IMG/VR virus record: IMGVR_UViG_2541047739_000006
DNA from: a virus
Taxonomy: Duplodnaviria; Heunggongvirae; Uroviricota; Caudoviricetes
Strand: one strand, 5' to 3'
DNA: 34,603 bases
Position 1 is the stretch's first letter. Each line of letters opens with the position of its first letter. Shown here piece by piece: positions 8,230 to 33,187 of this stretch. The position numbers and the translations under genes were made by a program. The notes under the pieces were generated by a model. It worked only from the letters and a program-made list of their open reading frames with translations. It was not told where the DNA came from and searched no databases.

Positions 8230-8239
8230 GGATGGAGCC

Positions 8240-12178: not shown

Positions 12179-12272
12179 TGCTATTTGTTTCATATTTTGC
12201 AATTACGATGATGAATATTGCGATTTGTGAAACTATAATAACTGTTGTTTTATACAGTTCTAAGGGGGCGTT

Positions 12273-12434
12273 ATGGCTATTTCAGTAAAGCCGGTATTGA
12301 TAAGTGAGAAGCAAATGGAAGCGATAAAGAAAATTCAGGAAGAGCAGCGTAAAAAATCAGGAATTGGAGTAGCGCCAACTCTGCATGAAATTGCACGAGG
12401 GTTAATAGATAAGGCGCTGGCAGGCTGTATGTGA
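12273..12434 (+). CDS. small ribbon-helix-helix-like protein (53 aa)
   Basis: AGGGGG Shine-Dalgarno 6 nt before ATG; beta-strand/helix/G-turn/helix pattern (VKPVLISEKQMEAIKKI...G...TLHEIARGLIDKAL); below the ORF-track length cutoff. Confidence 0.45.
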   Translation: MAISVKPVLISEKQMEAIKKIQEEQRKKSGIGVAPTLHEIARGLIDKALAGCM

Positions 12435-12450
12435 AAATGGATGGCATCGC

Positions 12451-12912: not shown

Positions 12913-13583
12913 TTACCCATATAGCTTATAAACATCTCAATCGTGCCGTATACGAAAAAGGCGGTGATGGTGGTGCCTCTAAAGCTCAGGCGAAGGCCCA
13001 GCAGCAGGCAATTGATTTGCAGCGCGAGCAGTGGAATACGGTGATGAATAATCTCAAGCCGTATGCAGAAGTCGGATTGCCTGCTTTACAACAACTACAA
13101 GGACTGATGACTCTGGAAGGGCAGAATAAAGCCGCGAATGATTTCTTTGGTTCTGGTTTATATAAAACACAGGCAGATCAGGCCCGTTATCAGAACCTTG
13201 TCTCAGCAGAAGCTACCGGGGGGCTTGGCTCAACAGCTACCAGTAACCAGTTATCTTCCATTGCGCCCATGCTTTATAACAATTGGCTCAGTGGGCAAAT
13301 GCAAAATTATGGAAACCTGCTAAATGTCGGGATGAATGCGGCATCAGGGCAGGCAACAGCAGGGCAAAACTACGCCAATAATACCGGACAACTCTTGCAG
13401 GGGCTTGGCGCTATTCGTGCAGGTCAGGCGCAGCAGCCATCCAGTCTTGCGCGTGGTATTGGTGGGGCGGCATCAGGCGCTTTAGCGGGTGCGCAACTTG
13501 GTTCCGTTGTTCCGGGTATAGGTAATGTCGCCGGGGCTATTGGTGGTGGGCTTATTGGTCTTGTTGGGGGGCTTGGATTCTAA
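12906..13583 (+). CDS. Q/G-rich hypothetical protein with glycine-zipper C-terminus (possible phage ejection/internal protein)
   Basis: 225-aa ORF overlapping the upstream stop; C-terminus GGAASGALAGAQLGSVVPGIGNVAGAIGGGLIGLVGGLGF. Confidence 0.65.
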   Translation: MLITHIAYKHLNRAVYEKGGDGGASKAQAKAQQQAIDLQREQWNTVMNNLKPYAEVGLPALQQLQGLMTLEGQNKAANDFFGSGLYKTQADQARYQNLVSAEATGGLGSTATSNQLSSIAPMLYNNWLSGQMQNYGNLLNVGMNAASGQATAGQNYANNTGQLLQGLGAIRAGQAQQPSSLARGIGGAASGALAGAQLGSVVPGIGNVAGAIGGGLIGLVGGLGF

Positions 13584-14327
13584 TGGCGACATGGCAACTT
13601 GGCGGGCTGCCTAGCATGGCACCGCAAAATGATAATGCTCCTCGTTCTTCCGTTCCTCAGCCTGTGCAGTATCAGCAGCAGCCAAACGTAGGTTTAATGG
13701 CGCTACAGGGGCTAAGAGGCGTTGCTGAGATTAATCAGCAGGCACGTCAACAACAGCGTAAAGCAGAGTTTCAGAAAGCATATGCCGGGGCTTTTGAGTC
13801 TGGAGACAGAAACAAAATGCGCAGTCTTATTTCTGAGTATCCAGAAGAATTTGAAAGCGTTCAGAAAGGGATGGGCTTTATTGATGACGACCAGAGAAAT
13901 TCTATTGGTCATCTTGCGACTAGTGCTCAAATCGCATCTTCGCTCGGAACTGGGGCATTTGGAAAATTCATAGCAGATAACGAAGATGAAATGCGTCGTT
14001 TGGGAATTTCTCCTGAGTCTGTTGCCGAAATGCATGTTAATGATCCACAGGGATTCCAGCGGCTTGCTGGTAGTATGGCACTGTTTTCTCTCGGTCATGA
14101 GAAGTACTTCGATATCAAAGATCGAATGGAAGGTCGGGATATTGAGCGTGGCAAGTTGGCAGAGACGATCCGCAGCAATCAAGCCGGAGAAGCACTTCAG
14201 GCGAGAGGGCAGGATATTAGCCGAGCAAATGCGTTAACGTCAGCATATGCACCAACAGCCGCAATGCAGAATTACAATCAATACGCGCAAATGTTAAAGG
14301 CGGATCCAGAGGGGGCTGCGGCATTTG
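13583..14327 (+). pseudogene. hypothetical phage-like protein, 3'-truncated by IS1
   Basis: ORF starts at the upstream stop (ATGG overlap) and runs into the IS1 end at 14328; the apparent stop lies inside IS1. Confidence 0.6.
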
Positions 14328-14342
14328 GGTAATGACTCCAAC

Positions 14343-14846
14343 TTATTGATAGTGTTTTATGTTCAGATAATGCCCGATGACTTTGTCATGCAGCTCCACC
14401 GATTTTGAGAACGACAGCGACTTCCGTCCCAGCCGTGCCAGGTGCTGCCTCAGATTCAGGTTATGCCGCTCAATTCGCTGCGTATATCGCTTGCTGATTA
14501 CGTGCAGCTTTCCCTTCAGGCGGGATTCATACAGCGGCCAGCCATCCGTCATCCATATCACCACGTCAAAGGGTGACAGCAGGCTCATAAGACGCCCCAG
14601 CGTCGCCATAGTGCGTTCACCGAATACGTGCGCAACAACCGTCTTCCGGAGCCTGTCATACGCGTAAAACAGCCAGCGCTGGCGCGATTTAGCCCCGACA
14701 TAGCCCCACTGTTCGTCCATTTCCGCGCAGACGATGACGTCACTGCCCGGCTGTATGCGCGAGGTTACCGACTGCGGCCTGAGTTTTTTAAGTGACGTAA
14801 AATCGTGTTGAGGCCAACGCCCATAATGCGGGCTGTTGCCCGGCAT
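14343..14846 (-). CDS. insB: IS1 InsB
   Basis: Identical 167-aa InsB as at 5821..6324. Confidence 0.95.
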
Positions 14847-15040
14847 CCAACGCCATTCATGGCCATATCAATGATTTTCTGGTGCGTACCGGGTTGAGAA
14901 GCGGTGTAAGTGAACTGCAGTTGCCATGTTTTACGGCAGTGAGAGCAGAGATAGCGCTGATGTCCGGCGGTGCTTTTGCCGTTACGCACCACCCCGTCAG
15001 TAGCTGAACAGGAGGGACAGCTGATAGAAACAGAAGCCAC
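14765..15040 (-). CDS. insA: IS1 InsA
   Basis: Identical 91-aa InsA as at 5627..5902. Confidence 0.95.
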
Positions 15041-15104
15041 TGGAGCACCTCAAAAACACCATCATACACTAAATCAGTAAGTTGGCAGCATCACCGGGTG
15101 ATTA

Positions 15105-17210
15105 ATGGCTAAAGCATGGAAAGATGTTATCGCCTCTCCACAGTATCAGGCGTTAGCACCAGAACAAAAAGCGCAGGCTCAGGAGCAATACTTCAATGAA
15201 GTCGTGGCCCCGCAAGCCGGAGAAAGTGTAGCGCAGGCTAAGCAGGCTTTTTATGCTGCCTATCCACTACCATCAACGAATGAAATAGACCGATCCCAAT
15301 CAGCAACTCAAAATATTCAACATACATCATCTGATAATTCTCTTGCGTCAGGGTATGCAAAGTTAGCTACTCAGCAAAGAGAGGGGCTTGAGCGTTCAGC
15401 AGAACAGGGAGCCAGTCTTGGGGCTGCGATGCGCGATGCTATAACAGGCGAAAGCCGAATGACTCCAGAGATGGAGAGACTGCAAAATGTCGACCTTGCC
15501 CCAGAGTTAACCTCACTCAGCATGGGTGCTCTAAAAGCTCGATGGTCTCAACTTTTCGGCTCTGACGCATCTCAGGAAAAGATTCTTCAGAGCATGGGAG
15601 CGAAATTAAGGCAGGATGAGAAGGGTAACACTATCGTTTCCCTGCCATCCGGTGATTATGCTCTGAACAAGCCGGGTTTATCGCCGCAAGACGTGGCATC
15701 GTTTCTGGCTAATGCGCTGGCGTTTACACCAGCGGGCAGGGCTGGAACGGTGCTTGGTGCCATAGGAAAATCAGCAGCTACAGATTTAGCACTACAGGGA
15801 GCCACCAGCCTTGCTGGTGGAGAAGATATTGATCCGTTACAAACGGTAATTTCTGCTGGCATTGGTGGTATTGGTAAGGGGCTGGAAAATACAGCGAGTG
15901 CGGTTTCGAGGGCTGTTCGTGGTGATATGTCGCCTGAAGCAAAGGCTGCTGTCAACTTTGCATCGGAAAGAAATCTGCCGTTAATGACCAGTGACATGCT
16001 GAAAGATAAAACCTTTATGCAGAGTCAGGCTCAGACATTAGGCGAAAGAGTTCCTTTTTTTGGAACCGGTAAGAATCGGCTGAATCAACAACAAGCACGA
16101 GAAAATTTAGTCAGAACATTTAGCGATGGTCTGGGTGGCATTTCTGATAAACAGCTTTATGAATCTGCGACTAAAGGGCAACAAAAATTCATTGAGGCAG
16201 CAGGAAAGCGATATAACCGCATAATTGACGCTATGGGGGATACCCCTGTCGATCTCTCAAACACGGTAAAAGCTATCGACAATCAGATTGCCGTGTTAAG
16301 CCGCCCGGGCAAATCTCAGGATAGAGCCGCGGTAAAAGTCTTGCAGCAATTTAAAGACGATATCACCAGCGGACCAAATGACCTGCGTCTGGCGAGGGAA
16401 AACAGAACCGATCTTCGAAAGCGATTTATGGCGTCATCTGACACTGTTGATAAAGATACGCTCCAGAAAGCCAGCGATATTATCTACAAGGCATATACGG
16501 CGGATATGAAAAAAGCCGTAGCCAAAAATCTTGGAGCAGACGAAGCCATTAATATGGCAAGGGTTGATCGGTCATGGTCTAAATTCAATGACATGATGGG
16601 AAGAACGCGCGTTCAAAAGGCAATAGCCAGCGGTAAGGCCACGCCTGAGGATGTAACAAAACTCGTTTTTAGCCAAAGCCCATCAGAACGTTCTCAGCTT
16701 TACAGGCTTCTGGATGACAATGGTAGGCAAAACGCACGAGCAGCCATAGTTCAGAATGCTGTAGATAAGGCGACTGATCCGTCTGGAAATATCAGTGTTG
16801 AGAAGTTTATTAATGCGTTACACCGGAACAGGAAGCAATCAGCAACTTTCTTTAAAGGCGTACATGGAAAGGAACTGGACGGCGTTATTAAATACCTCAA
16901 CGATACAAGACACGCGGCAAAAGCGAACGTTCAAAACTTAAATGGTCAGCAGCTTTATGGATTGTTAGTTGGTGGTGGCATCATAAACGCAGCAGTATTA
17001 GCGGGGATGCTAAAAACGGCTGCGTTTGTTGTTCCTGCTGCTGGTGCCGTAGGCGGAGCAGCGAAGGCATACGAAAGCCCTGTTATACGAAATGCCTTGT
17101 TACGTCTGGCAAATACGCCAAAAGGTAGCACAGCATATGACAGAGCGATCAGTACGGTCACACAATCGCTCACCAGAGTCGCACAGGCATCACAAAAAGA
17201 AGCTCAATAA
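15105..17210 (+). CDS. large A/Q/G-rich hypothetical protein (possible phage ejection / DNA-transfer protein)
   Basis: 701-aa ORF starting 10 nt after the IS1 end (in-frame TGA 2 codons upstream); low-complexity coiled-coil-like N-terminus and hydrophobic glycine-rich C-terminal segment. Confidence 0.65.
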   Translation: MAKAWKDVIASPQYQALAPEQKAQAQEQYFNEVVAPQAGESVAQAKQAFYAAYPLPSTNEIDRSQSATQNIQHTSSDNSLASGYAKLATQQREGLERSAEQGASLGAAMRDAITGESRMTPEMERLQNVDLAPELTSLSMGALKARWSQLFGSDASQEKILQSMGAKLRQDEKGNTIVSLPSGDYALNKPGLSPQDVASFLANALAFTPAGRAGTVLGAIGKSAATDLALQGATSLAGGEDIDPLQTVISAGIGGIGKGLENTASAVSRAVRGDMSPEAKAAVNFASERNLPLMTSDMLKDKTFMQSQAQTLGERVPFFGTGKNRLNQQQARENLVRTFSDGLGGISDKQLYESATKGQQKFIEAAGKRYNRIIDAMGDTPVDLSNTVKAIDNQIAVLSRPGKSQDRAAVKVLQQFKDDITSGPNDLRLARENRTDLRKRFMASSDTVDKDTLQKASDIIYKAYTADMKKAVAKNLGADEAINMARVDRSWSKFNDMMGRTRVQKAIASGKATPEDVTKLVFSQSPSERSQLYRLLDDNGRQNARAAIVQNAVDKATDPSGNISVEKFINALHRNRKQSATFFKGVHGKELDGVIKYLNDTRHAAKANVQNLNGQQLYGLLVGGGIINAAVLAGMLKTAAFVVPAAGAVGGAAKAYESPVIRNALLRLANTPKGSTAYDRAISTVTQSLTRVAQASQKEAQ

Positions 17211-17229
17211 CTGGTTAGCCATGGATGGC

Positions 17230-17844
17230 TTAGATATCTCTGCTGTCTCCATTAGGAAATAAAAGATAATATGGATTTGCCTTTCTTGCTCTCCTTGCTT
17301 CACCCGGATACCTGTTAGTCAGTAGCTTGCATAATGAGCAGAGAACAACACTCAAGAAAATTCCGAATGAGAAGATCAATATCTCACCAAAAATCAATGG
17401 CGATATTAAATTTTCAGGATTTAATGATAAGTCAATGTTAAAAACATATTGAGCAATACCAGTAAGTATCAATAATATAATCCCTATGGAATACATTGCT
17501 GTTTCCCAAACATCAGACAGTCTATTTTTGAATTGTTCGCTGGAGTAGTAGTTTGTTATAAAGTCAGAAAAATCACTCTCATATGCATCATCTTTAGGTG
17601 ATGTTAGAAATCCTCTGTCTCTCCATACCTTCTCCCAATTAGTCGATTCTTTTTTTAAGGAAAAATAAATATGTATTCCCAAAAGGATAGCCAAAATTGG
17701 TGTTAGCTCTAAAAAATAGAATGTTATGGAATAAATAATACTGCCATGTTCAAACTCATCTGGGACTATCATGTATGCACAAAAATAAATTGAAAAGTAC
17801 ACCATGCAGATAGTTAGCAATTCTTTAGTATCTTTTCTGCTCAC
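17230..17844 (-). CDS. multi-pass membrane protein, AT-rich, unknown function
   Basis: 204-aa ORF with several hydrophobic segments (ICMVYFSIYFCAYMIV, LTPILAILLGIHIYF, IGIILLILTGIAQYVF, IFGEILIFSFGIFLSVVLC); composition sharply more AT-rich than its neighbours. Confidence 0.6.
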   Translation of the reverse strand: MSRKDTKELLTICMVYFSIYFCAYMIVPDEFEHGSIIYSITFYFLELTPILAILLGIHIYFSLKKESTNWEKVWRDRGFLTSPKDDAYESDFSDFITNYYSSEQFKNRLSDVWETAMYSIGIILLILTGIAQYVFNIDLSLNPENLISPLIFGEILIFSFGIFLSVVLCSLCKLLTNRYPGEARRARKANPYYLLFPNGDSRDI

Positions 17845-17957
17845 ACCAACCCCCTTTAGCGTTGTTTAGAATGGCAATCATCATATATCCAAGACATGGC
17901 ATTTGGTACATAGCTTGGGTCGGGATTTCAAGTCCGCTCCCAGTTGATGGGGCCGTT

Positions 17958-18342
17958 ACAGTACGCGCATATCCGCTTTATGTGAAACAGGAAGATTTTT
18001 CTGATATCACTGCCACAGCAAAACACCAATTTCGTGACCAGTACGCGCGCGAGGGGTATCAGTTGCAAAATTTTTTGCAACTGCGTCCGACCAGTACGCA
18101 CACGATGGCGGGGGATACCATAAAACTGTTCTCTACATGAGACAGAGTGGTGGTGATGTGTTGATTATCGGCGTATATGCGCACAGGACGCGCTATGACG
18201 ATGTTTTATGCGGGTACACCAATCACATGTATCTGGTGTGATAAATCGCGTTACATGACCTCTCATGTTGTGCTGGTGGTTATCACGACTTTCTGAATCT
18301 GGCCTTTGCCTGATATTTTGCGACAAGTACGCGCGCGTAGCA
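17958..18342. repeat. repeat family with alternating-CG palindromic core (CAGTACGCGC at 17958; GACCAGTACGCGCGCGA at 18036; GACCAGTACGCACACGA at 18089; GACAAGTACGCGCGCGTAGCA at 18322) plus an 11-bp inverted repeat CAGTTGCAAAA-tt-TTTTGCAACTG at 18060..18083
   Basis: Read directly; a fifth copy lies at 19712..19734. Confidence 0.6.
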
Positions 18343-18365
18343 TCGACAGCATACACATTGGATAT

Positions 18366-18587
18366 TCATTTTGTGACCAATGCGATAAGTAGCGGGATAA
18401 GAATTGATAAAATCAACAGGCCGATGATCCACTTTTGATTTTCACTGGCCTTATCTCTATTTTCATCAATCTTATCAATAATTCGACGCTCCAATCCGTG
18501 CATATCACCGCGAATGGCAATCATCTCATTGCGAACATCAGGGAAGTGGTTGGCTTGATGTTCAATGTGTGGCGTTCTGCCTTTCAT
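18366..18587 (-). CDS. small tail-anchored membrane protein (coiled-coil N-terminus + C-terminal TM)
   Basis: 73-aa ORF; charged N-terminal region then WIIGLLILSILIPLLIALV; resembles XhlA/holin-like small proteins, not verified. Confidence 0.5.
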   Translation of the reverse strand: MKGRTPHIEHQANHFPDVRNEMIAIRGDMHGLERRIIDKIDENRDKASENQKWIIGLLILSILIPLLIALVTK

Positions 18588-18666
18588 ATCTGATCCTCAC
18601 CTATCGTCACTACCTGCTGGTGTATAAAGGTATTGGCCCAAGCAACTTTCCAATGGGCACTCATGT

Positions 18667-19122
18667 TTATACGCTGACCTTACAATCAATCACTGCTTTT
18701 AGCTTTTCAGCATTGCTTCCCTGACGCTTCCACGCGCTGTAAATATCTTTATCCCACGCTTTACCAGCTTTTGTTTGATAGCCTGCTTCATTGATCCGTT
18801 CAGCTATCACACGCCCATTATCAAATCCCTGTTGGATGGTATCGGCAATGATCTTTATAACTGCCGTTTCGTTATATGGTTTTGGTGGGATGTTCGGCTT
18901 TCCGGCAATAAGCGACGCAGCGGCTTTTTCCATGCGCTCCACCAGCCCAAGCATTCGTGAATCAATAGACTTTTCCGGCTGCCCCAGCTTCATGCGAATC
19001 GCATCAACAAGCCAGGAGGTTTTATCTCCTCCAGAAGCGAGAACAGACCGATTAAACTCATCCTGCAATTCAGATGGGATGCGGAACGCGACCAGATTAG
19101 ATTTGCTCATTGCAAAGACCAT
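18667..19122 (-). CDS. ribbon-helix-helix (Arc/MetJ-type) domain protein with C-terminal extension
   Basis: 151-aa ORF; N-terminus NLVAFRIPSELQDEFNRSVLASGGDKTSWLVDAIRMKL fits the beta-strand/helix/G-turn/helix RHH pattern (compare P22 Arc/Mnt). Confidence 0.6.
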   Translation of the reverse strand: MVFAMSKSNLVAFRIPSELQDEFNRSVLASGGDKTSWLVDAIRMKLGQPEKSIDSRMLGLVERMEKAAASLIAGKPNIPPKPYNETAVIKIIADTIQQGFDNGRVIAERINEAGYQTKAGKAWDKDIYSAWKRQGSNAEKLKAVIDCKVSV

Positions 19123-19220
19123 ATCAGTGAGTAATATCCATACAGTATACCACTGTATAACACTGTTATACGCTCAAATATCAGCCAGAAAATAACGGAC
19201 CAATCACAAATCTATCGCTG

Positions 19221-19352
19221 TGTTGTTGGTTCAGAGCTGGGCTGTGTTGGTTCAAAATGAGTTGATGTTGGTTCAATATTTCAGAAAAAACACAATAAAA
19301 ACAACAATCTTTACAAATTGAACCAACTGAACCAACTGAACCAACACCTTTT
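19221..19352. repeat. crr-like second iteron module; inverted copy of the ori module
   Basis: The reverse complement begins with the same 43 nt as the ori module (AAAAGGTGTTGGTTCAGTTGGTTCAGTTGGTTCAATTTGTAAAGA), followed by an AT-rich spacer and three TGAACCAAC copies. Confidence 0.55.
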
Positions 19353-19381
19353 TGCTTATCTATATAATCTGAGAGGCAGAA

Positions 19382-19663
19382 ATGATAAGGGACAGGAAAG
19401 CTGAAGAGCTGGAGTCAAAAGGGCTATACCGGAGAGCTGCCGCACGATGGATGGAAGTCATGCTGTTATGCACCGAGGACGATGATCGGGAATGGATAAA
19501 GCGCCGCCGTGAAACGTGTCTGGAGAACGTGAAGCGCCCGCCCGTGAAGGTTGAGGAATTTGGCGACCTGCATAAAGCTGTTACCGAAACGCAACACCGC
19601 ATGGGGATAGCGCAACCGAACGGTAACGCCTTCCGGTTAAATGGCGGCAAGAGGCAAAGGTAG
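19382..19663 (+). CDS. PerC-family transcriptional activator homolog
   Basis: 93-aa ORF; N-terminus MIRDRKAEELESKGLYRRAAARWMEVML matches the PerC/Pch family signature as I recall it. Confidence 0.6.
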   Translation: MIRDRKAEELESKGLYRRAAARWMEVMLLCTEDDDREWIKRRRETCLENVKRPPVKVEEFGDLHKAVTETQHRMGIAQPNGNAFRLNGGKRQR

Positions 19664-19960
19664 ACCACCAGAGGGAAATCATCCTCTGGCTGGCGGTTTC
19701 TGGTATTTCGGGACAAGTACGCGCGCGCGTAGCACCCAATCGGTGAGGAAATAGCGGCGACCTGAATGGTCAAAATCACAACGCAGCTATCCCCGTAAGC
19801 AGCGCTTAACGGAATAGCAGTAACCTGAATCCAGTGGGGAGGGGGTAGTCAAATCTCTACAGCCCTGACTATCCGGGACTGCCCGCCCCATCGTTTTTTT
19901 ATACCCGCGAAAAATGAAATTTAATCCGGGCGTGTTTCATTCTTCCAGAGGGTATGACGT

Positions 19961-20146
19961 ATGACACCACGCGAAATAGCCTTATTGACCATCGCCAAAC
20001 TTGAGCACGGAGGCCACCAGCTTACACAGGCAGATCAACGGGAGATAGAACGATCAGTTAATGCCGATATAGCCCGGCGCGACAGGTTCCGCGAAATGAT
20101 GCGAGCACCTGCCTACCAGTGGAAGAAGCCAGCGCCGCGCAGGTAG
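19961..20146 (+). CDS. hypothetical small protein
   Basis: 61-aa ORF with a GAGGG Shine-Dalgarno-like sequence upstream; no recognisable domain. Confidence 0.35.
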   Translation: MTPREIALLTIAKLEHGGHQLTQADQREIERSVNADIARRDRFREMMRAPAYQWKKPAPRR

Positions 20147-20266
20147 ATATGGGATTATTCCACATGTAACTTATGCGTATTAAGCAAATTTCCTTTATTC
20201 ACCTTTACAGAATTGTGAGTACGTCAGTATCGTTATCCTTCCGATTCGCATTTATTCAGGATTTGC

Positions 20267-20809
20267 ATGTACCAGCTAAAGATAACCATCCGAGACAGCA
20301 AACCACCTATATGGCGGCGTGTGCTGGTTCCAGAGCAAATCCCCTTTAGTAAACTTCATGCCGTGATCCAGTTAGCTTTTGGCTGGAATGACGAACACCT
20401 GTATATGTTCGAGAAAGGGCGTAAAGGTGATCCAGGTAGCGAGTATCGCGTATGGGGTGAGGATGAAAGCATGGGTAACGCGGCAATCACGCCACTATGG
20501 GCGGCGCTCCAGAATGAGGGTGACAAGCTGGTTTACACGTATGACTTTGGCGACTGGTGGGATTGCGTCATTGTGCTGGAGAAGCAAACACACGATACGA
20601 GTAATCAGCCCATTAGCTGCCTGCGTGGGAAAGGCACCACCCCGGCGGAAAACTCAGGCGGCTTGCATGGTTACAATGAATTGCTATTACAGGCCAGAGA
20701 GTCTGATAATCCTGAGCAGGCCGAGATCCACAATTTCCTGATGCTGGATATTGAACGCCGGGTTTACGACCTGAGCCGCATCAACGACAGATTGCAGGCT
20801 ATTAACTGA
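20267..20809 (+). CDS. plasmid pRiA4b ORF-3-like family protein
   Basis: 180-aa ORF; N-terminus LKITIRDSKPPIWRRVLVP...LHAVIQLAFGWNDEHLYMF is the hallmark of the pRiA4b ORF-3-like (PF07929) family. Confidence 0.75.
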   Translation: MYQLKITIRDSKPPIWRRVLVPEQIPFSKLHAVIQLAFGWNDEHLYMFEKGRKGDPGSEYRVWGEDESMGNAAITPLWAALQNEGDKLVYTYDFGDWWDCVIVLEKQTHDTSNQPISCLRGKGTTPAENSGGLHGYNELLLQARESDNPEQAEIHNFLMLDIERRVYDLSRINDRLQAIN

Positions 20810-21161
20810 CCCGCATGTATTCACCTGATATTGCGTTGTCAGCGCCGCCAGTATCGCGCATAACAGCGCACTGACCGGGTAAACCGTAGCGCACGACCGT
20901 TGCGTTAGTATCACCGCCGCGCCGTATCTGGCGCGATTCATACACTGTCACCCGCTCAAGCAGTCCACCAGCAACCATGCTTTCCAGTGTGCGCCGGGTT
21001 GATTCGAGCTGGTGACGCTTATCGAACGACACCATGCCATGAAGCAGGTAGGCCACACCCGACACATCGAACGGCGGCGCACCAATCTCACCAGTCACCC
21101 ATTCGAGGTTATCCGGTTCAAAGTAGCTAAGTATCTCTTTTTTGCGGCTGGTCATTCTCAT
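20802..21161 (-). CDS. hypothetical protein
   Basis: 119-aa ORF convergent with and overlapping the previous gene by 8 nt; AAGGA upstream. Confidence 0.5.
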   Translation of the reverse strand: MRMTSRKKEILSYFEPDNLEWVTGEIGAPPFDVSGVAYLLHGMVSFDKRHQLESTRRTLESMVAGGLLERVTVYESRQIRRGGDTNATVVRYGLPGQCAVMRDTGGADNAISGEYMRVS

Positions 21162-21279
21162 GGCTGGCTGATTCCTTATTGTGGGATAGCACTATCATAC
21201 AATAAGTGGGTTAAAGGGAGAGCGTTACCGCCTGATATGCTGTATGAATAACAACCAAATTTCAGGGGCGGAAAAAGAT

Positions 21280-21378
21280 ATGGGGGTACTTTTGGGGGTA
21301 TCTATAAAAAATGAACAATAAAAAAGGCAACAAAAACAAAGCTTATCGCCTATGTGTATTGTTCCTATTATCGCACAA
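21280..21378 (+). other. putative attR of the P4-like element (arm-type repeat ATGGGGGTACTTTTGGGGGTAT plus degenerate core TCCTATTATCG-CACAA)
   Basis: 21/22 match to the arm repeat at 1557; TCCTATTATCG at 21363..21373 matches the thrW 3' end at 1428..1438, then diverges. Confidence 0.4.
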
Positions 21379-22142: not shown

Positions 22143-22310
22143 AAATCTCCAGAACGCAACAGGACGCATTCTAACGCTATTTTCATTGCTTGGTATAGGG
22201 ATGTATAGGTGATGTGTGTTTAATGCGTCTGTGCGCTTGTTTTGTGCCTTATTTTGCATTTTCATAATGCAGAAGAGAACACGGAAAACCTTAAAATTAA
22301 TTATTGGGGT

Positions 22311-22472
22311 ATTTAAGGGTATTTTCAGGTGATTTAAGGGTATTAAACTTGATTTAATTGATTAAAATATAAACAGATAGTTGTGTATCTTATTGATTTA
22401 TAAGGTTATTTTTAAATAAAGGTAAATAAAAAATAAATAGCCATAAATAGCTATAAATACATCTAAATACCT
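22311..22472. repeat. direct repeats ATTTAAGGGTATT x2 (22311, 22332) and four tandem ~10-bp units TAAATAsC (22434..22472)
   Basis: Read directly in AT-rich non-coding DNA; helical-turn periodicity. Confidence 0.55.
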
Positions 22473-22610
22473 ATATCCCTTCCCTTATGGCTAGATTGCG
22501 AGAGGTGCTTAACGCGATTTTCAGCGCCCCCCGATCTGGAAAATCCAGAATCCCCAAATATCAGCAAGGAATTTTCTTGCGTAATCAACATCGTTTTTAC
22601 CTATTAAATC

Positions 22611-23925
22611 ATTACACAGAAAGCCTTTCTGTAATGTCTCTCACTAAACTTTCACTAAACACGAGAATGATCGGTTTTATGTCGGATCAGATGCTAGAAA
22701 CAGCACCACGTCTCACAAGGACTGTAAGCGATGAAACCAGTGTTTATGCGGGTGCAGGTCAAAATATAGGCCAAAATCAATTTAACATAATAAACGTAAT
22801 ATGCACTAAGGAACACATAGAACGCCTTGAGTTGATGTATCAGGGGAAAAATGATGGATTTTTTACGTAGGAGCACGAGAGGGCTTCTGTTGACTTTTGT
22901 ATGCTATGAAACATAATTAAAGGTTTTTTTGTTTTTATTGTGTGATGTAGTGGATTACACAGGGGAATAGATTAAATGGTGTTCTGTTTATACAGGTTTA
23001 TTTGTTAGATCAACAATTTGGCATTTCTAAACAGATGTTTGAACGTTGCCAAATGTCTTGACAACACAAGAAAAGGGCTTGCTATGCCACGCATTACACG
23101 AAATAAGGCTGTAAAAACAAAATAAATTTTAAAATTTGCACAAACGAGAAAACTCGTTAAGAAACAAGCAGAACAATTTTTAGCCAACAATTTCTGATGG
23201 TGCTCTGTAGGCCGCACTACACAAGGATTTGCGAAAGTGATGTAAAAGTGAAGAAAGTAAGAATTGCACTTTTAAGCTACTTTTCATTGAATTTTTAGTA
23301 TGGAATTACACAGGAATAAGTTAGGGATATTCTATGATTTACACAGGGAATATAGGGGATTATGGCACACACATAGAAAGGCATTACACAGAGTGAGTGC
23401 TATGTGATGATTGGTAGTAACGGTAGGTCATAGTGAGCTAGGGGGTAGGTCACTGTGAACTACAATAAGACTATTAATAAAACTATATTAGATTATTAAT
23501 TAGATCATAATAATAATATTCTTTATATCTATATATATGATCTTTTGCCTTCCGGCGTTAGCTTCACTCTCTGGCAAGCAGCCTTACTCCGCTACCTTTC
23601 GGGCTTCGTGGCTGGCCCGTTCCGCTCACACCGAAAGCAAAGCGTTACTTTCTTCGTGTAACTTCGTTGGCGGTAACGCCCACGAAGAAATCTATTGCGC
23701 TGTGCGCAGTAAGAGTAATCACCTAACCAATCATACTGATTGCTTATGTGTTAACTCTCTCTAACTCTTAATTACCCTCCTACATTTAATAACTCTGTTA
23801 TTCTCTGTAGTTGTGTAATTACTCGAAGAGAGAGCGGCTAAAGCTCAATTACACTCTGCTTTCCTCGTGTAATTTCACTAAGCCTCAATACAATTTCACT
23901 TCCTACATTCTGTAGTCGTGTAATT
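22611..23925. repeat. dispersed iteron-like motif ATTACACAGG(G)AATA: about six forward copies (22611, 22954, 23093, 23305, 23337, 23383) then about four inverted copies (about 23655, 23813, 23866, 23916)
   Basis: Read directly; forward copies cluster upstream and inverted copies downstream of a GC-rich hairpin island. Confidence 0.55.
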
Positions 23926-24561
23926 GTTTTCGGTGGAAAAGCCAGAGGCGACACCGAAAGAGAATTCTGATCTTATTAATCTTATCTATCTTAGTTAATC
24001 TTCTTACTTATCTTACTTACTTTATCTACTTTATTATTAATAATAGCTTTATAAGCTCTCTGTGTAGCTCTCTGACGCAAGAAACAGCATTCAGGAAGGG
24101 AATCACCTTAGAAAAGGTGTTCTTTGCGTCATAATGTGTTTTATGAAGGATTCAGAGGTGTTTCATAACAGGAATGTATAGAGAATACTTTAGGTAATTA
24201 AAAATAAGGGGTCTAAATGCTTCTCTAACAGCATTAAGCAGGGTAGGGAATGGAAACGCATTGCCTACATATAATAAACTCACTACAGGGCTTTACAGGG
24301 CGTTTTATAAAGTGACTCTCTGTTTTATATCTACAATCACCTTTTCATATACCTAACAAATACAAAATAAGCCCCTTAAATAAGCCTCTGGCGAGCTAAA
24401 CAGACATTACATAAGAGAATGTATTGCTTTTATCAAAACTTCGTTAGAACGCGTTTTAGAGCGTTTTAGCGGATAATGAAGAATAGCACTACACAGAAGA
24501 GCACGAATTGCCAAGACAAATTATAACATGCTGAAAAAGATCGATTTTTTCGAAAAGGGTA

Positions 24562-24590
24562 TTGACAAATGTTTCTTTATATGTAATAAT
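24562..24590 (+). promoter_or_regulatory. sigma70-like promoter (TTGACA, about 17 bp, AATAAT) preceded by palindrome TTTTCGAAAA
   Basis: Consensus -35 at 24562..24567; AT-rich -10 at about 24585; about 115 nt upstream of the first gene of the operon. Confidence 0.35.
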
Positions 24591-24703
24591 AGGTATTAGA
24601 GGGACAGAAAAACATTCTTCTCTAAATAATCAAAATCAATGCACTTTGAAGCCGTCAGGCTTGCAAGGTGTTTTATTTCTTTTAACTGAATAAGGAGTTT
24701 TTT

Positions 24704-24892
24704 ATGAAATGGTTTACACCGGAGCACGTCGTAAAGGCATTTAAAAAAGGTGAGCTTACACGCCACCAAATAGTAATGAATCGTAATATGGCAAGGAGTC
24801 GAGGTTATCCAGAGCGAGCAGCTTGCTTCAATGAAGCACTCAAGATTATTGATGAACTAAGAAAAAATGAAAAAGAATCTGAAACAGAGTAA
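24704..24892 (+). CDS. hypothetical small protein
   Basis: 62-aa ORF with AAGGAG 7 nt upstream of ATG. Confidence 0.55.
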   Translation: MKWFTPEHVVKAFKKGELTRHQIVMNRNMARSRGYPERAACFNEALKIIDELRKNEKESETE

Positions 24893-24911
24893 AGAAGAGA
24901 AGGAGAAAACT

Positions 24912-25082
24912 ATGAGCGAAGCTACAGAAAAGAAAAGACAACCACGCACTTGCTTTCATATTCCTGATGAAGTATTTCAGGTGTTGTTTAAAGAAGCCAG
25001 AAGTAAACGTATCACTGTTACAGATTACATTCTTGATATGTTGAAAAGAGAGGCTGAAACACTCTCAAATAAAAGCAAGTGA
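24912..25082 (+). CDS. small putative DNA-binding protein (56 aa)
   Basis: AAGGAG 7 nt before ATG 24912; the listed 24867 start overlaps the upstream gene. Confidence 0.5.
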   Translation: MSEATEKKRQPRTCFHIPDEVFQVLFKEARSKRITVTDYILDMLKREAETLSNKSK

Positions 25083-25135
25083 TTTTTATCACCATAGTAG
25101 CGCCATAGAGCGTGATTACATCAAGGAGATTTTTA

Positions 25136-25828
25136 ATGATTAACCAACTAACTTTTACAAAACACTATGACACGTTTGATAATATATCAAAGATTTATTC
25201 TGATAAATTCCCTCAAGGAAAAGATTTAGATCTATTACATATTGTGCTTTATTTTCGATTCCTTAGTTATCAGGAAAACAACCTTAATTGTTATGAAAGT
25301 CACGAAACATTAGCTAAGATTTTTAAGTCTTCACCATCAACAATTAAACGTAAGATAAACGATCTTAAAGAGATGGGATTATTAGAAACATCCCCACATC
25401 CTGATCCGTATATTTCATCTTTGATTTACAATGCTCTCCCTCTCACAGATGCACATATTACTCCCCCAGGAGAATCATCACTCTCTGATCTTTCTGAGGC
25501 AGAAGAAGCACAGGAACAACCTAAAGGCCATAAACAGCCTTCTTTTGATGTTCTTGATGATGATTGGGATACGCCTTTACCCTGGGAGACGGAAGAAACA
25601 CCTGTTTCATCAAGTGAAAAGGTAGCTAATGATAATGAGGAGGATGTGTTAGAGAATTTTGCCTCTCTTATCATCCAGGAGAAACACAAAAGAACAGGAG
25701 GGGCATCATTTATAGAATTTGCAAATTCACTAGCTTGTAGATACGGGCTAAAACGACCAAATGGTATTGAGGCATATTTTTCTAAGCATTACCCAAATGT
25801 ATACGAAGACTTTGATATTCCCTTTTAA
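25136..25828 (+). CDS. replication-initiator-like protein (wHTH N-domain, acidic linker)
   Basis: AGGAG before ATG 25136; ETLAKIFKSSPSTIKRKINDLKEMGLLE helix-turn-helix; acidic stretch DLSEAEEAQEQ...DDDWDTPLPWETEE. Confidence 0.6.
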   Translation: MINQLTFTKHYDTFDNISKIYSDKFPQGKDLDLLHIVLYFRFLSYQENNLNCYESHETLAKIFKSSPSTIKRKINDLKEMGLLETSPHPDPYISSLIYNALPLTDAHITPPGESSLSDLSEAEEAQEQPKGHKQPSFDVLDDDWDTPLPWETEETPVSSSEKVANDNEEDVLENFASLIIQEKHKRTGGASFIEFANSLACRYGLKRPNGIEAYFSKHYPNVYEDFDIPF

Positions 25829-27940: not shown

Positions 27941-28969
27941 ATGATTCTAGGTAATGATTACGTTGATTTAGCTCCTCTGTTCTCTGCGCATAGCACTAGA
28001 AATTATCTACTTTCTACTCTCGACTTCACTGATCCGGTGGGCGTTAGTTCTCATAAAGTAGCTGTTTCCCAGCTTGTCGAAAGCAACGAATCTCTCTTTA
28101 ACAAAGAGACAAGCCGTTTTAGTTCTGAACACAATGTTACTAAGCGAGAACAAGGTAAAGAATGGCTGATCGAAATCCCTTACTTCCTGCGTGAAGATGT
28201 GATCCGTCCTTCTGATGTTCAAGGCAAGCGTAAGCCTGGCACTGATTTTCAGGAAACACTCACTGATATTTATGCTGACTATGTTGCTAAACACCACGTA
28301 GCGTATCAGCGTACAAAAGAGAGCGTGCTGGCTGCATCTCTGTTTAGCGGTAAAACTTACACGCCTAAAACTGATGATGTTCTTATCGAGTGGAGCAAGC
28401 TGTTTAACGTATCAGCTATGAAAGCCACTGTGAACGCTTCCAGCACTGACACCACGAAGATTTTTAAAGAATTTGATCAGATTGCTACTGACATTATCGA
28501 AAAAGCACAGAGTCAGGCGGCGGCTGTAGAGCGAATTGTTGTTTTCTGTAAGCCGGAAGCCTTCTCTGCAATTCGATTCTCTGCTGGTATGGCAAACGCA
28601 TTCCAGTATGTAAGCCCACTGGAAGAGGGGAACGTTGTGTATCAGCGTCGTGACCTGCTGCCAGGGGTGACAGCGTTCACTATTCCAGGAACTAACATTG
28701 ATGTTGTTAAACTGGTAGATCCGCTACACCTGGCACATATGACCGCAGACGCTGTAGCTGTGCCTAAATTCTCTAAGGGTAGCGGAATTTATACCAACAT
28801 CTACGGGGCTGCTTCCAGCACCTTTGAACTGATTAATGCCGCTCCTGCTGAGGTGTATAGCTATAGCTATGAATCTTCTCGTGGTGATGCTGTTAACGTT
28901 GTTACAGAGAATAGCCAGATGGTGGTAAACCACGGTGTAGGCTTCTCCGTTCAAATCACTGTTAAATAA
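27941..28969 (+). CDS. major structural-like protein (342 aa), family unknown
   Basis: Long ORF followed directly by a strong intrinsic terminator, as for a highly expressed capsid or coat gene; beta-rich C-terminus. Confidence 0.75.
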   Translation: MILGNDYVDLAPLFSAHSTRNYLLSTLDFTDPVGVSSHKVAVSQLVESNESLFNKETSRFSSEHNVTKREQGKEWLIEIPYFLREDVIRPSDVQGKRKPGTDFQETLTDIYADYVAKHHVAYQRTKESVLAASLFSGKTYTPKTDDVLIEWSKLFNVSAMKATVNASSTDTTKIFKEFDQIATDIIEKAQSQAAAVERIVVFCKPEAFSAIRFSAGMANAFQYVSPLEEGNVVYQRRDLLPGVTAFTIPGTNIDVVKLVDPLHLAHMTADAVAVPKFSKGSGIYTNIYGAASSTFELINAAPAEVYSYSYESSRGDAVNVVTENSQMVVNHGVGFSVQITVK

Positions 28970-28987
28970 TATTTTAACGTGTAATAG

Positions 28988-29022
28988 AGGCGTGGCGTGA
29001 ATAACACGCTTCGCCTTTTTTT
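28988..29022 (+). terminator. intrinsic terminator
   Basis: AGGCG ... inner hairpin GCGTG-AATAA-CACGC ... CGCCT followed by TTTTTTT. Confidence 0.6.
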
Positions 29023-29055
29023 ATTTATTTTTAAATTTTGAGAGGTGATTAAAAT

Positions 29056-29259
29056 ATGGAAGTGATTTTGAAATCAAAAAATGGTGTACACGTACATTTA
29101 GATGCTAATGATTCTAGAGGATTGTTAAATCTGAAATATCTCTGTTCTCTTTTAGATGTTCCCTATGAAGGAGTAAAAGCCCGTATGTTCAGATTAAACG
29201 AGAGTATTGATCAGGCTCTACACCATTTCTTAAGCAAAGAAGGTGGTAAAAATGATTAA
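29056..29259 (+). CDS. hypothetical small protein
   Basis: 67-aa ORF with GAGAGG upstream. Confidence 0.5.
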   Translation: MEVILKSKNGVHVHLDANDSRGLLNLKYLCSLLDVPYEGVKARMFRLNESIDQALHHFLSKEGGKND

Positions 29260-30178
29260 TAAGGGGATTTTAAATGTTAGAAATTAACACTTCTAAAATT
29301 AAGAACACAGTAACATTTAGTGTAGATAAAGACAGCTTGAAAAAAGCGAAAGACTCTATTACAGGCTTAAAGGAATTTGCAGAGAATATCAAGCCAGCTA
29401 AGTTAAGGTTTGATAATGTCACTAAAGGCTATAAGAAAGCACAAAGTGAAGTAGACAAGATTGCTCAACAGAAAGCTAAAGCCGAAAAACAGAATCAAAG
29501 AGTACAAGCTGCCGCAGCAAGAGCACAGGCAAGGCAACAGCAACAAATAGCAGCACGTAAAGAGAAAGCAGAATTAAAACTCCTCGATGTGTCAAGCTCT
29601 ATCAGTGCAATGCACCGTCTCTCTGTAGCTGAACAATACAAAGCTATTGCACAGGCTAGAGAAATTGCCCTCCAATATGAAAGAGGCGCTATTAGTCTGG
29701 CACGTATGAATAGCCAGATGAAACGCTTACAACAGCAACAACGTAAGATTAATGGCAACAGAAAAGCACAATTAGCCCCCGTTAAGGGAGGATCAGGGAA
29801 TTCCGCCACTATGGGCGCTCTGTTATTTGGAGGCGCTACGGCTGCTGCTGGCGTGATGGCTGTTAGTAAAGCGTCGGAGTTTGTTAGTAGCAGTTTCGCT
29901 AACGCAGAGACCCAAGGGGAGCTAATCCAACGTGCAAGGCTTGGCGGTGTAGACGTTAACCAGATGTATAATATTACAGAATGGGCGTATAGAAACGGCG
30001 TTGACTCTATGATGGGTGATCAAGGGGCTAGGAAATACCTGGATCAGATGAAAGATGTTAGGGAACGTGCCGCAAAATCCTACAGTGAAGCTGAATTGGT
30101 GAAAGACAAGAAAACCGGAAAATCTGAATGGAAAGGCGGTGATAATGCTATTAATGAACTTCTAAACTGGATTTGCCC

Positions 30179-31084
30179 CTATATTTCCAGACATCTGTTA
30201 TCACTTAACCCATTACAAGCCCGCTGCCGCAGATATTCCCGTGGCGAGCGATAACCCAGCGCACTATGCGGATGCCATTCGTTATAATGCTCGAACGCCT
30301 CTGCAAGGTTCTTTGCTGCCGTTAACCCGTCTGGTTTGGGCATGATACTGATGTAGTCACGCTTTATCGTTTTCACGAAGCTCTCTGCTATTCCGTTACT
30401 CTCCGGACTCCGCACCGCCGTGTTCTTCGGTTCAAGTCCCAACATCCGGGCGAACTGGCGTGTTTCATTAGCCCGGTAGCATGAACCATTATCCGTCAGC
30501 CACTCCACTGGAGACGACGGAAGATCGTTGCCGAAGCGGCGTTCCACCGCTCCCAGCATGACGTCCTGTACTGTTTCACTGTTGAAGCCGCCGGTAGTGA
30601 CCGCCCAGTGCAGTGCCTCACGATCACTGCAGTCCAGCGCGAACGTGACACGCAGTCTCTCTCCGTTATCACAGCAGAACTCGAACCCGTCAGAGCACCA
30701 TCGCTGATTGCTTTCTTTCACGGCCACTCTGCCTGTATGTGCCCGTTTCGATGGCGGTACAGCAGGTTTTCGCTCAAGCAACAGCGCATTCTGGCGCATG
30801 ATCCGGTAAACACGTTTGGCATTGATCGCAGGCATACCATCAAGTTCTGCCTGTCTGCGAAGCAGCGCCCATACCCGACGATAACCATACGTGGGCAGCT
30901 CTCCGATAACATGGTGTATACGGAGAAGCACATCCGTATCATCAGTGTGACGACTGCGGCGGCCATCCATCCAGTCATCGGTTCGTCTGAGAATGACGTG
31001 CAACTGCGCACGCGACACCCGGAGACAACGGCTGACTAAGCTTACTCCCCATCCCCGGGCAATAAGGGCGCGTGCGCTATCCAC
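30179..31084 (-). CDS. insD: IS2 OrfB transposase (InsD)
   Basis: 301-aa [34 protein letters not shown]...; recognised IS2 InsD. Confidence 0.93.
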
Positions 31085-31407
31085 TTTTTTGCCCGTCCAT
31101 ATTCAACGGCTTCTTTGAGGAGTTCATTTTCCATCGTTTTCTTGCCGAGCAGGCGCTGGAGTTCTTTAATCTGCTTCATGGCGGCAGCAAGTTCAGAGGC
31201 AGGAACAACCTGTTCTCCGGCGGCGACAGCAGTAAGACTTCCTTCCTGGTATTGCTTACGCCAGAGAAATAACTGGCTGGCTGCTACACCATGTTGCCGG
31301 GCAACGAGGGAGACCGTCATCCCCGGTTCAAAGCTCTGCTGAACAATTGCGATCTTTTCCTGTGTGGTACGCCGTCTGCGTTTCTCCGGTCCTAAGACAT
31401 CAATCAT
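31042..31407 (-). CDS. insC: IS2 OrfA (InsC)
   Basis: [41 protein letters not shown]...; recognised IS2 InsC. Confidence 0.93.
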
Positions 31408-32473
31408 CTGCTCTCCAATGACTAGTCTAAAAACTAGTATTAAGACTATCACTTAAATAAGTGATACTGGTTGTCTGGAGATTCAGGGGGCCAGTCTATA
31501 AACATCGGTGTTATTAACAAAAGCGACCTTAAAAAATTTGCTGATAATCCGGCTGGATTAATTTCTAAGGCTGTTAATGGAATGATGAAAAAAGGGTTTT
31601 CAGACTCCCAAATTGGACAACGTTTAGAAGACCTGGGCGATGATTTGATGCTTACGTCAAAATATTGGCAACGTTCCGTTAAAGATGTACAAGAAAGTAT
31701 TAATCAGCAAAAAGCCTCTGGAAAATGGCTAACAGAAACACAGCAAGACTCTATTGTTAAATTCAGAGAACTAAACAGACAGCTTTCACAGCTTTCTGAT
31801 GCAAGACAAGTAGCATTCGTAGACGGCTTTATGAAATCTCTCGATCCAAAAGTAACGGAAGAGTTTATGAAAAACCTTTCTAATCTCACTCCGTATTTTA
31901 CGAAGCTGGGAGAAGCTACAGGAAGTCTCTTTGAAGCTATTATGAAGATTGTAAACTGGTTTAATCGTAATGATGATAAGACAGATGCTATTCAGAAAAA
32001 TATGGGTGATGCACCGCCATTAAGCAATGAAGGGATGAAACAGAATCTTTCTAATCTCGTTCCTAATCAATATAAAGGCGCTGGCACTGCAACAACTACA
32101 CCTGATAATAGTCATTCTCTCTTTAACACAATTAAGGGATTGCTTTTCGATGATAATTCTTCTGTGTCAGATGTAAAAATGTCAGTCAATGAAGCACCGA
32201 TAACCAATCTCAAACAGGGTGCTTTAAATAATCTTGCAATGACAACTCCAGCTTATAATTTATCTCCTGTGTTTAATCTGAATCCTACATTTGAAGTGGT
32301 AACAGAAGTGCCGCTAACTATCGAATCAGACACCGGACGATTGAGCGATTATGTGGATTTTACAGCGAGAGCAAGTCGGGATAGCTTCTTGAAATCATTA
32401 ACATTAACCAGCTTATCAGGACAATCCAACGGCGGGTAATTCCCGCCATAACATTACAAGGAAAATTATTATT

Positions 32474-33187
32474 ATGGCGACCGCCGGGATTTTAACCATA
32501 CGTGCAGCAAATACTCCAGAACAACACGTTCAGGCTGTTTACAAAGCAGAACAAGATATAAATTCTACAAAAAACGAAAATAGCAAAGCTAATAAAACAA
32601 AAGGAGAGAACGGATTTGCTATTGTTACCAGTGGCTTGGCATCTTCTGGTAATGACGTTTATGAAAATTATATGGCACTGGCCTTTGATAGTGTTGACGA
32701 TGTGAACGTGAGACGTTCGGCAGATGTCACAAGCTACCCCGTAGAAAATGGTGCTACTGTGTCTGATCACGTTCAAATTAAAAACAATAAGTTCTCTCTT
32801 AAAGGGCGTATCACTGAAACACCGATTAAAAGCGATCCTGGCTTGTTAAAGAGTGCAGGGGTGAACGGGAACAGAAGATCATTAGCTATAGACTACTTGA
32901 ATCAGATTATGGACAGTAGACAGCCTTTTCTTCTTGTTACAGAAAATAAAACTTTTGAGAACGTTGTTTTAACAGGCATCGAATACACAGAAGAGGCAAG
33001 CGAATCCCTGGTATTTGATCTTAGCTTTGAACAAATAAGATTAGTTTCTTATGGTACTGTAAACACTGTAGCTATCAAAACACAGCCATCTAAGAACATC
33101 GGGGCGAATATGAAAAAACGTGTTAACACTGAAAAATCAAGTAGTGAAGGTGAAGACACTATTACTCCTGCCTTTAAACAGGAATAG
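32474..33187 (+). CDS. hypothetical structural-like protein (237 aa)
   Basis: Follows the IS2-split gene on the same strand; no recognisable catalytic motif. Confidence 0.65.
   Translation: MATAGILTIRAANTPEQHVQAVYKAEQDINSTKNENSKANKTKGENGFAIVTSGLASSGNDVYENYMALAFDSVDDVNVRRSADVTSYPVENGATVSDHVQIKNNKFSLKGRITETPIKSDPGLLKSAGVNGNRRSLAIDYLNQIMDSRQPFLLVTENKTFENVVLTGIEYTEEASESLVFDLSFEQIRLVSYGTVNTVAIKTQPSKNIGANMKKRVNTEKSSSEGEDTITPAFKQE

Follow-up and report, generated by a model that had tools for sequence, protein, structure and literature searches.

A conserved structured non-coding block in a small integrative element of Escherichia coli is probably part of its replication origin

The window analyzed in the present study, a stretch of 34,603 nucleotides held as virus record IMGVR_UViG_2541047739_000006 in IMG/VR, is a part of the Escherichia coli chromosome at the thrW tRNA-Thr(CGU) gene (1369-1444), where two islands lie in tandem. 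The second island, an integrative element of ~13 kb, carries a structured non-coding block of ~400 bases (23553-23948, tentatively assigned to the minus strand), which forms about 10 hairpins and bears no annotation in the RefSeq records, and this block is probably a working part of the island's replication origin, as single-stranded DNA or RNA. We rate it as an accessory structure of the origin, unusual in both its size and its conservation, within a modular origin where a swappable specificity pair, i.e. the iterons and the helix-turn-helix (HTH) domain of a Rep-like protein, is arranged around a constant structured module. The small integrative elements that carry the block form a widespread, unstudied family, and the block shows where their replication origin probably lies. 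A 441-bp query covering the block matched 439 of 5,426 complete E. coli genomes, O157-like strains included and never on plasmids, with the fold conserved, and divergent relatives exist in B/BL21(DE3) and E. coli C.

The original prediction, made from the sequence of the window, described a GC-rich hairpin cluster inside AT-rich DNA at 23540-23960, and this description holds: GC is 0.55 at 23550-23699 versus 0.29-0.31 (~0.30) in the flanks on both sides, and the region folds far beyond shuffled sequences (z -7 to -9). With RNA parameters, 23540-23960 (421 nt) gave z = -7.6 on the plus strand and -8.3 on the minus strand, and with DNA parameters 23553-23948 gave -7.0 and -8.65, respectively, while none of 100 shuffles folded as well as the block. 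When the 2.6-kb unannotated region was scanned, the 150-nt segments with z ≤ -4 on either strand all started within 23350-23750, spanning 23350-23899. The four hairpins and repeats named in the prediction were all found where it had placed them and can be read directly in the sequence: the stem CGGGC (23600-23604)/GCCCG (23615-23619) with a 10-nt loop; the stem TTTCTTCGTG (23649-23658)/CACGAAGAAA (23681-23690) around GGCG-GTAA-CGCC (23669-23680); the stem TCGGTG (23930-23935)/CACCGA (23952-23957); and ACACCGAAAG, which is present twice (23628-23637 and 23951-23960). The GTAA loop, which had been classed as GNRA-type, exists in the window but is not conserved, being ATAA in close variants and replaced by a different hairpin in other types, and the repeat (ACACCGAAAG, "ATTACAC"), though it does occur twice, belongs to this variant and not to the family. 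The ends of the block are joined by a long-range helix, CTCTGGC (23569-23575)/GCCAGAG (23941-23947).

An open reading frame (ORF) of 75 amino acids that begins with ATG overlaps the block (23537-23764, plus strand) and lacks a Shine-Dalgarno sequence. In relatives with 91.7-99% DNA identity, translation from this ATG would give 41-94 amino acids, with several frame changes, and the divergent types have neither the ORF nor an equivalent ATG. Because it is frameshifted or truncated even in near-identical relatives, the ORF is, judging from these comparisons, not a gene, as had been proposed, and the chance that it codes for a protein seems negligible. Public contigs matching its product were genome and metagenome contigs only, with no transcript evidence among them.

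On the minus strand, the block contains a three-way junction (23649-23690) composed of a closing stem, hairpin 1 (GGCG-UUAC-CGCC), and mini-hairpin 2 (AAC-GAA-GUU), and the minimum free energy structure of the window's minus strand under DNA parameters reproduces this junction, which was found by comparison. It is followed by the hairpin GCGC-ACA-GCGC (23697-23707; GCGCTGTGCGC on the plus strand), which is invariant in all types and shows no covariation; by the long hairpin d (23755-23835) with an AAC-loop-GUU inner hairpin; by hairpin c (23836-23884), which has a GGCU/AGCC base, a conserved UGAA/UGAA internal loop, and a type-specific stem; and by hairpin b (23890-23927; ACAAUU/AAUUGU, CAC/GUG, CUACA/UGUAG). 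Hairpins d and b are paralogous, reflecting a 105-bp direct duplication (23804-23820/23909-23925), one copy of which is missing from L004 (L numbers designate the loci compared).

Divergent versions of the block were reached through weak BLAST matches at L027 and L048, L031/L035, L033, L034, and L062, of which L034 is the version in E. coli B, BL21(DE3), and C, and L062 is Klebsiella-like in appearance with a different right half. Each has its own iterons and AT-rich GATC stretch, and then a block of 330-465 nt, which has in common with that of the window only the short sequence islands GGCAAG, CCTTTSG, CCGCTCAY, GCGCTGTGCGC, GGCTWARG, CTGTAGTYGTG, and GCCAGAGG. The divergent types fold less extremely than the window's block (z between -2.1 and -5.7 for the minus strand and between -1.3 and -3.7 for the plus strand) but keep the same architecture and the conserved sequence blocks. 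Since MAFFT and RNAalifold mis-registered the helices, alignments fitted by hand were used and no covariance model was built: helix arms were cut out by hand, their in-order occurrence was checked by script in each sequence, and pairs were counted on gap-free alignments. In these alignments, which were fitted to the structure so that the paired percentages lean towards it, 25 of the 44 pairs are changed on both sides. The three-way junction is present in 7/7 types as a closing stem, a hairpin whose UUC loop is constant in 5/7, and a mini-hairpin with a C-RAA-G loop; with the same lean, its 13 pairs are formed in 98.7% of cells and 11 of them are changed on both sides across six types, which none of 500 shuffles reached, compared with 24-46% paired in slid controls. 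Hairpins c and b and the AAC-loop-GUU inner hairpin together have 31 pairs, likewise formed in 97.6% of cells of the fitted alignments, with 14 changed on both sides and again 0/500 shuffles reaching this level, and slid controls over all 44 pairs gave 22-46%. Three of the six pairs of the inner hairpin are changed on both sides, and the stem of hairpin c reads AUUACAC/GUGUAAU in the window, CCGU/ACGG in L027, and CUGG/CCAG in L031. The covariation across homologs that had been suggested as a check is, therefore, observed as compensating changes in many stems of the divergent relatives, as far as hand-fitted alignments can tell. Independently of the alignment, the same topology lies between the same anchors in types whose stems share no sequence. 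These comparisons support the idea that the block carries a structure under selection.

The alternative that the block is functionless, i.e. leftover duplicated palindromic DNA hitch-hiking beside an origin, would account for the polymorphism of the 105-bp internal duplication/deletion, the existence of IS-truncated copies, and the stem substitutions within a type, most of which break pairs. It seems very improbable, however, because the architecture persists, with compensating changes, between types whose shared sequence is limited to short blocks and because, in the window's own type, unpaired columns vary ~3 times more often per column than paired ones (22/134 versus 14/262). Somewhat less improbable, but still doubtful, is the idea that the block works as duplex DNA, offering palindromic protein sites or cruciforms for partition, multimer resolution by a neighboring small recombinase, packaging, or regulation. 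The hairpins are indeed short-looped palindromes and both strands fold; many relatives have a small serine or tyrosine recombinase gene to the left of the non-coding region, ~1 kb from the block; and the element, which has a capsid gene and no annotated terminase, would need a packaging site. In duplex DNA, however, the nested and long-range helices, such as the three-way junction and the closing helix spanning ~370 nt, and the G.U pairs make no sense, and each of at least eight palindromes of unrelated sequence would need its own protein. Moreover, the window keeps the block though it has no recombinase gene, and no match to lambda cosN or P2 cos was found in the block. An invertible switch, a candidate considered in view of the nearby small recombinase and an inverted nucleotide skew, was rejected, as no inverted copy was seen among ~30 loci and the window is without the recombinase.

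The surroundings of the block resemble those of an origin. The order of iterons, AT-rich/GATC stretch, structured block, spacer, promoter, two small ORFs, and Rep-like protein is the same in all types read. In the window, a partly palindromic 19-bp iteron (GGTAGGTCAYWGTGARCTA) occurs twice with 22-bp spacing (23422-23462) and is followed by an AT-rich stretch (23463-23545; GC 0.29-0.31 in 150-nt segments), which contains GATC at 23503 and 23539, ends in GATCTTTTGCC, and is a candidate DNA-unwinding element; in every type read, the iterons are separated from the block by such an AT-rich GATC stretch. The relatives have 2-6 iteron copies, which are entirely different palindromes depending on the locus, e.g. 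TAGGAAATGAGTTCC, ACAGAATTCTGTTA, GATACCCCTATCAA, and GTAACGATATGTTACAT. The Rep-like protein (25112-25828, plus strand) has an N-terminal match to the HTH_36 domain, just above the cut-off (PF13730; E 1.1e-5, 25.5 bits with a cut-off of 25), and matches eight initiator/loader families of PHROG, best phrog_270 (E 1.1e-9), while PDB and NCBIfam gave no useful match. Across 13 loci, six iteron types correspond one-to-one with six clusters of the Rep N-terminal domain. The N-terminal 110 amino acids, which hold the HTH_36 match, are 23-30% identical between clusters, whereas identity in the C-terminal part amounts to 69-94% among the four nearer clusters and to 30-44% where the two most distant ones are concerned. 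The Rep-like protein is, in other words, a two-part mosaic, and the iterons switch in step with it despite 1.6 kb of conserved DNA between them, which looks like the pattern of an initiator and its iterons. Across those Rep types, by contrast, the block is 91.7-100% identical, as are the spacer and the small ORFs. Because the block is constant while the iterons and the Rep HTH domain change, we infer that it does not interact with Rep, and its partner is more likely something common to all hosts.

Several observations concern the iterons themselves. At L002, L010, L014, and L025, two full cassettes, each of iterons plus an AT-rich stretch but of different types, follow one another upstream of the block, and the cassette adjacent to the block matches the resident Rep; in the metagenome contig L018, the order is reversed and the Rep-matching iteron set lies further upstream. 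Six copies of (A/T)TTACAC(A/G) in the same orientation, mostly ATTACACAG, are found in conserved non-coding DNA to the left of the iterons (22611, 22954, 23093, 23305, 23338, and 23383, plus strand), TTACAC/GTGTAA occurring nine times in 23000-24000 versus 0-2 times per kb elsewhere. These copies could be a site of another DNA-binding protein or a res site of the relatives' recombinase. The idea that the copies inside the block form an "ATTACAC iteron" was rejected, as they are stem sequences here and unrelated stems replace them in other types. No consistent integration host factor-like sites were found; two isolated matches lie far to the left, in two types.

The reading we favor, although we would put its probability slightly below even, is that the block is the constant, host-facing module of the origin of the ~13-kb element, a folded single-stranded DNA acting as a priming signal. 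The Rep-like protein would bind the type-specific iterons at 23422-23462, as their covariation suggests, and the adjoining AT-rich GATC stretch would melt. A host helicase would then unwind into the block, and the purine-rich minus strand would fold into compact short-looped hairpins; the minus strand has the capacity to fold, and the fold is conserved. By analogy with single-strand initiation (ssi) signals, the fold might resist single-stranded DNA-binding protein and signal to host DnaG, PriA, or RNA polymerase where to begin primer synthesis or primosome assembly, which would launch rightward leading-strand synthesis with the minus strand as its template to the right of the opening. Such a role would explain why the module is constant while the iterons and the DNA-binding domain of Rep are swapped, because the module would deal with the host machinery and not with Rep. 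Stable hairpins in one strand are indeed present beside the AT-rich stretch in all types, and this invariant position is one of the points that favor single-stranded DNA.

A number of findings weigh against the priming-signal reading. At 350-460 nt, with ~10 hairpins, a junction, and a closing helix, the block is far larger than known priming signals (~40-150 nt) and RNA-like, and its purine-rich strand is inverted relative to all neighboring DNA, as a leftward transcript would give. No sequence relationship to characterized ssi signals of the G4, phiX, or RSF1010 type was found by blastn against plasmid and phage collections, and the block had no match among 72,556 plasmids and 50,697 phages (blastn, 11-base word), only two partial matches being found in the plasmid collection, both to the left flank of a longer query. 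As regards primase, six types retain the right half, and the sole CTG start trinucleotide that all of them share lies inside CCTCTGGC, a part of the closing helix, and the other CTGs are lost in L031. DnaA boxes (TTATCCACA, ≤1 mismatch) are absent in and near the block in any type, the only matches being located ~380-490 bp to the left in three types; DnaA boxes are not required by all iteron-type origins. Among the 21 distinct sequences of the window's own type, neither compensating pairs nor a strand bias was seen, and the lean of the hand-fitted alignments mentioned above belongs here as well. Finally, Sp1 and Sp2 of O157 Sakai, small prophages of the thrW region that cannot be mapped with certainty to these islands, showed no circularization or replication in the conditions tested (PMC2669165). 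Since these small prophages neither circularized nor replicated, the activity of the element may need a helper or an inducer.

The assignment of the block to the minus strand is tentative, and the evidence for it is modest. Stabilization over shuffles is greater on the minus strand in 5/5 types, it is only on this strand that tandem G.A pairs form in the conserved UGAA/UGAA loop, a 12-bp helix in L033 contains three G.U pairs on that strand, and the GC and AT skews of the block are inverted with respect to every neighboring 500-bp segment, the minus strand being purine-rich; the curated helices and the within-type polymorphisms have no clear strand bias. A conserved structure with compensating changes would be expected equally of single-stranded DNA and of RNA. 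In favor of RNA are the size of the block, its multi-branch architecture with a helix closing the ends, and its purine-rich strand. The following observations point toward DNA. A sigma-70 promoter (at least 9/12 matches) or an intrinsic terminator at the block edges was not found in convincing form on either strand in any of the seven types scanned. The supported loops are mostly of 3-4 nt, C-GAA-G mini-hairpins included, and GNRA/UNCG loops are not conserved. DNA energy rules recover 121 (minus strand) or 109 (plus strand) of the 151 curated pairs, compared with 80 of 151 on either strand by RNA energy rules. The search of RNA families that had been suggested as a check went against RNA: in Rfam 15, no family reached the gathering threshold over the block, E ≤10 in the window's version, or E ≤5 in five divergent homologs.

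The main rival to the priming-signal reading is that the minus strand is transcribed leftward to give a structured RNA of ~400 nt or more, whose 3′ end would run into the AT-rich stretch and which would prime or activate replication or set the copy number. Such a transcript would be a large, end-closed, multi-branched domain with covarying stems, conserved junction sequences, and the tandem G.A motif; it would be consistent with the purine-richness of the minus strand against its neighbors' skew and with its relatively better folding, and in every type it would be directed towards the AT-rich stretch. In L027, L033, and L048, weak leftward sites that resemble promoters stand back-to-back with the rep promoter, and an 8/12 match, TTAACT-17-TAAGAT (23998-23970), was noticed by eye at the right edge of the window's block. 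Those leftward sites are not conserved, however, and neither a minus-strand promoter of at least 9/12 matches to the right of the block in the window's type nor a terminator after the block was found; in addition, triloops dominate, special RNA tetraloops are not conserved, RNA energy rules account for the conserved helices less well than DNA rules do, and no Rfam family is matched. On balance we regard this transcript as rather unlikely, though worth serious consideration. The same guarded assessment applies to the more specific proposal that the block encodes an undescribed RNA of ~350-460 nt acting obligatorily in cis, as primer or activator, in the initiation of a Rep/iteron origin; if true, this would be a new class of replication RNA in E. 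coli integrative phage-like elements, including those of the B/BL21 and C laboratory strains. The original suggestion of a replication-control or antisense RNA is supported in part: the region is non-coding, it shows compensating changes, and its fixed place by the iteron/AT-rich unit links it to replication, but its RNA nature is not established, and the fallback offered with it, a protein-recognized DNA structure, is in single-stranded form at least as likely as RNA.

Comparison with known systems helps to place the block. In R1/R100, the "G-site" is situated ~400 bp downstream of oriR. RSF1010 has ssiA and ssiB inside oriV (PMC8567376), and in pIGRK/pHW126 the ssi signal adjoins the iterons, its loss altering the copy number and multimer formation (PMC6854812). 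In common with the block, these signals are hairpin-forming non-coding DNA located by the iterons and AT-rich region of a Rep-dependent origin, are independent of the iteron sequence, and are read single-stranded by priming enzymes, as is proposed for the block. They differ in lacking sequence similarity to it and in size, since the known signals are of 40-150 nt with 1-3 hairpins, whereas the block is of 350-460 nt with ~10 hairpins, a three-way junction, and a closing helix. As a priming signal, the block would surpass all known ones in size and elaboration, and as an RNA it would be a new replication RNA. The oriV regions of RK2 and RSF1010 are composed of iterons, an AT-rich region, and a GC-rich region. 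The unit described here has the order of parts and the nearby Rep gene in common with such iteron-type theta origins but has no DnaA boxes, its GC-richer part, which has a conserved fold, exceeds theirs several-fold in length, and the Rep gene is 1.2 kb away, behind its own promoter. The single-strand origins (sso) of rolling-circle plasmids, which are also found in ICEBs1 (PMC4595007), are also long and structured; they are non-coding and strand-specific, their stems covary, their loop motifs are conserved, and host enzymes use them to start the synthesis of the complementary strand. They serve, however, rolling-circle replicons with HUH initiators or relaxases, in contrast with the predicted HTH initiator and iterons here, where no relaxase is present. 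In ColE1 RNA II and in transcript-primed Rep origins of the pAMbeta1 type, a structured transcript primes replication. A transcript of ~400-550 nt pointing at the origin would fit the size and orientation of the block, but there is no clear promoter or antisense partner, Rep and iterons are present, and the rep operon is transcribed away from the origin. Large phage and plasmid RNAs in Rfam are similar in size and covariation pattern, but no model matches the block.

To the right of the block, a conserved spacer (23960-24561) holds a type-specific AT stretch and GCGTTTTA repeats. The former, a pyrimidine-rich AT stretch with CTTATCT/CTTACTT repeats (23960-24055), exists in the window's type only and is absent from the divergent types. 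The GCGTTTTA-containing motif occurs three times (24293-24307, 24444-24458, and 24454-24468) upstream of a strong promoter and recurs in every divergent type; it looks like an operator, perhaps for an Arc-like small protein. The promoter, a sigma-70-like one found by scanning (24562-24590, plus strand; TTGACA-17-AATAAT with TG upstream), would drive the rightward operon, which begins with two small ORFs of 62 and 71 amino acids (24704-25082, plus strand), the second of which is Arc/ribbon-helix-helix-like. An equivalent promoter (9-11/12 matches) is located ~200-270 bp to the right of the block in 5/6 other types, L003 having none this strong.

The second island extends from about 21376 to past 34603, with a leftward integrase at its far right, and consists of a 52-amino acid ORF, 2.5 kb without annotation (22143-24703), the small ORFs, the Rep-like HTH protein, hypothetical genes, and then virion-type genes. 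The latter (27941-33187) include a lambda-E-type major capsid gene, a tape-measure-like gene, which is interrupted by IS2 in strain AF3, and a Dit-like gene; a portal, a protease, and a terminase were neither annotated nor detected when ten ORFs were scanned against Pfam and PHROGs. The island may be an undescribed kind of phage satellite. We found no paper on the element or its family, a search of loci based on the capsid gave close relatives only, and pattern scans of IMG/VR, JGI metagenomes, and GTDB genomes gave only Escherichia-level relatives and chance matches. The integration sites of this element vary: in L002 and L003 it adjoins the paoD/LysR-fragment end of the thrW region, in L026 it lies next to yggE, in L033 it is inserted between yehC and thiM, and in some genomes (L032 and L080) it stands alone at thrW. 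In strain AF3, the homologous block is at 4,746,640-4,747,080 of NZ_OZ547117.1. The L034 remnant (NC_012892.2, about 2.086 Mb, with the block at 2,085,693-2,086,174) lies near metG/apbC, upstream of the thiM-side locus, at the same site as L033; iterons, AT-rich stretch, block, and promoter are all retained in it together with the Rep-like gene, and no capsid or integrase is annotated in the 7-kb stretch examined. At 22143-22947 of the window, the recombinase gene is replaced by unrelated AT-rich DNA containing a 127-amino acid ORF (22487-22870) with no NCBIfam match, and homology with the relatives resumes at 22948.

The first island spans ~1445 to 21373, with an integrase at 1610-2824, and its right end is a copy of the 3′ end of the tRNA gene (TCCTATTATCG, 21363-21373). 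Its genes are named here as in the annotated RefSeq records that match it. A P4-alpha-like TOPRIM/DUF927 primase gene and homologs of P22 ejection proteins (a DUF2824 protein and a gp16-family protein) lie at 8929-17210, and no capsid or tail genes are annotated, which is an odd gene set for a satellite-like island. A C4 antisense RNA was matched over its full length at 6423-6510 on the plus strand (RF01695; 79.9 bits with a cut-off of 45), at the start of a 180-amino acid ORF (6427-6969). Near both ends of the island, a 22-bp repeat (ATGGGGGTACTTWTGGGGGTAT; 1557-1578 and 21280-21301) looks like integrase arm sites.

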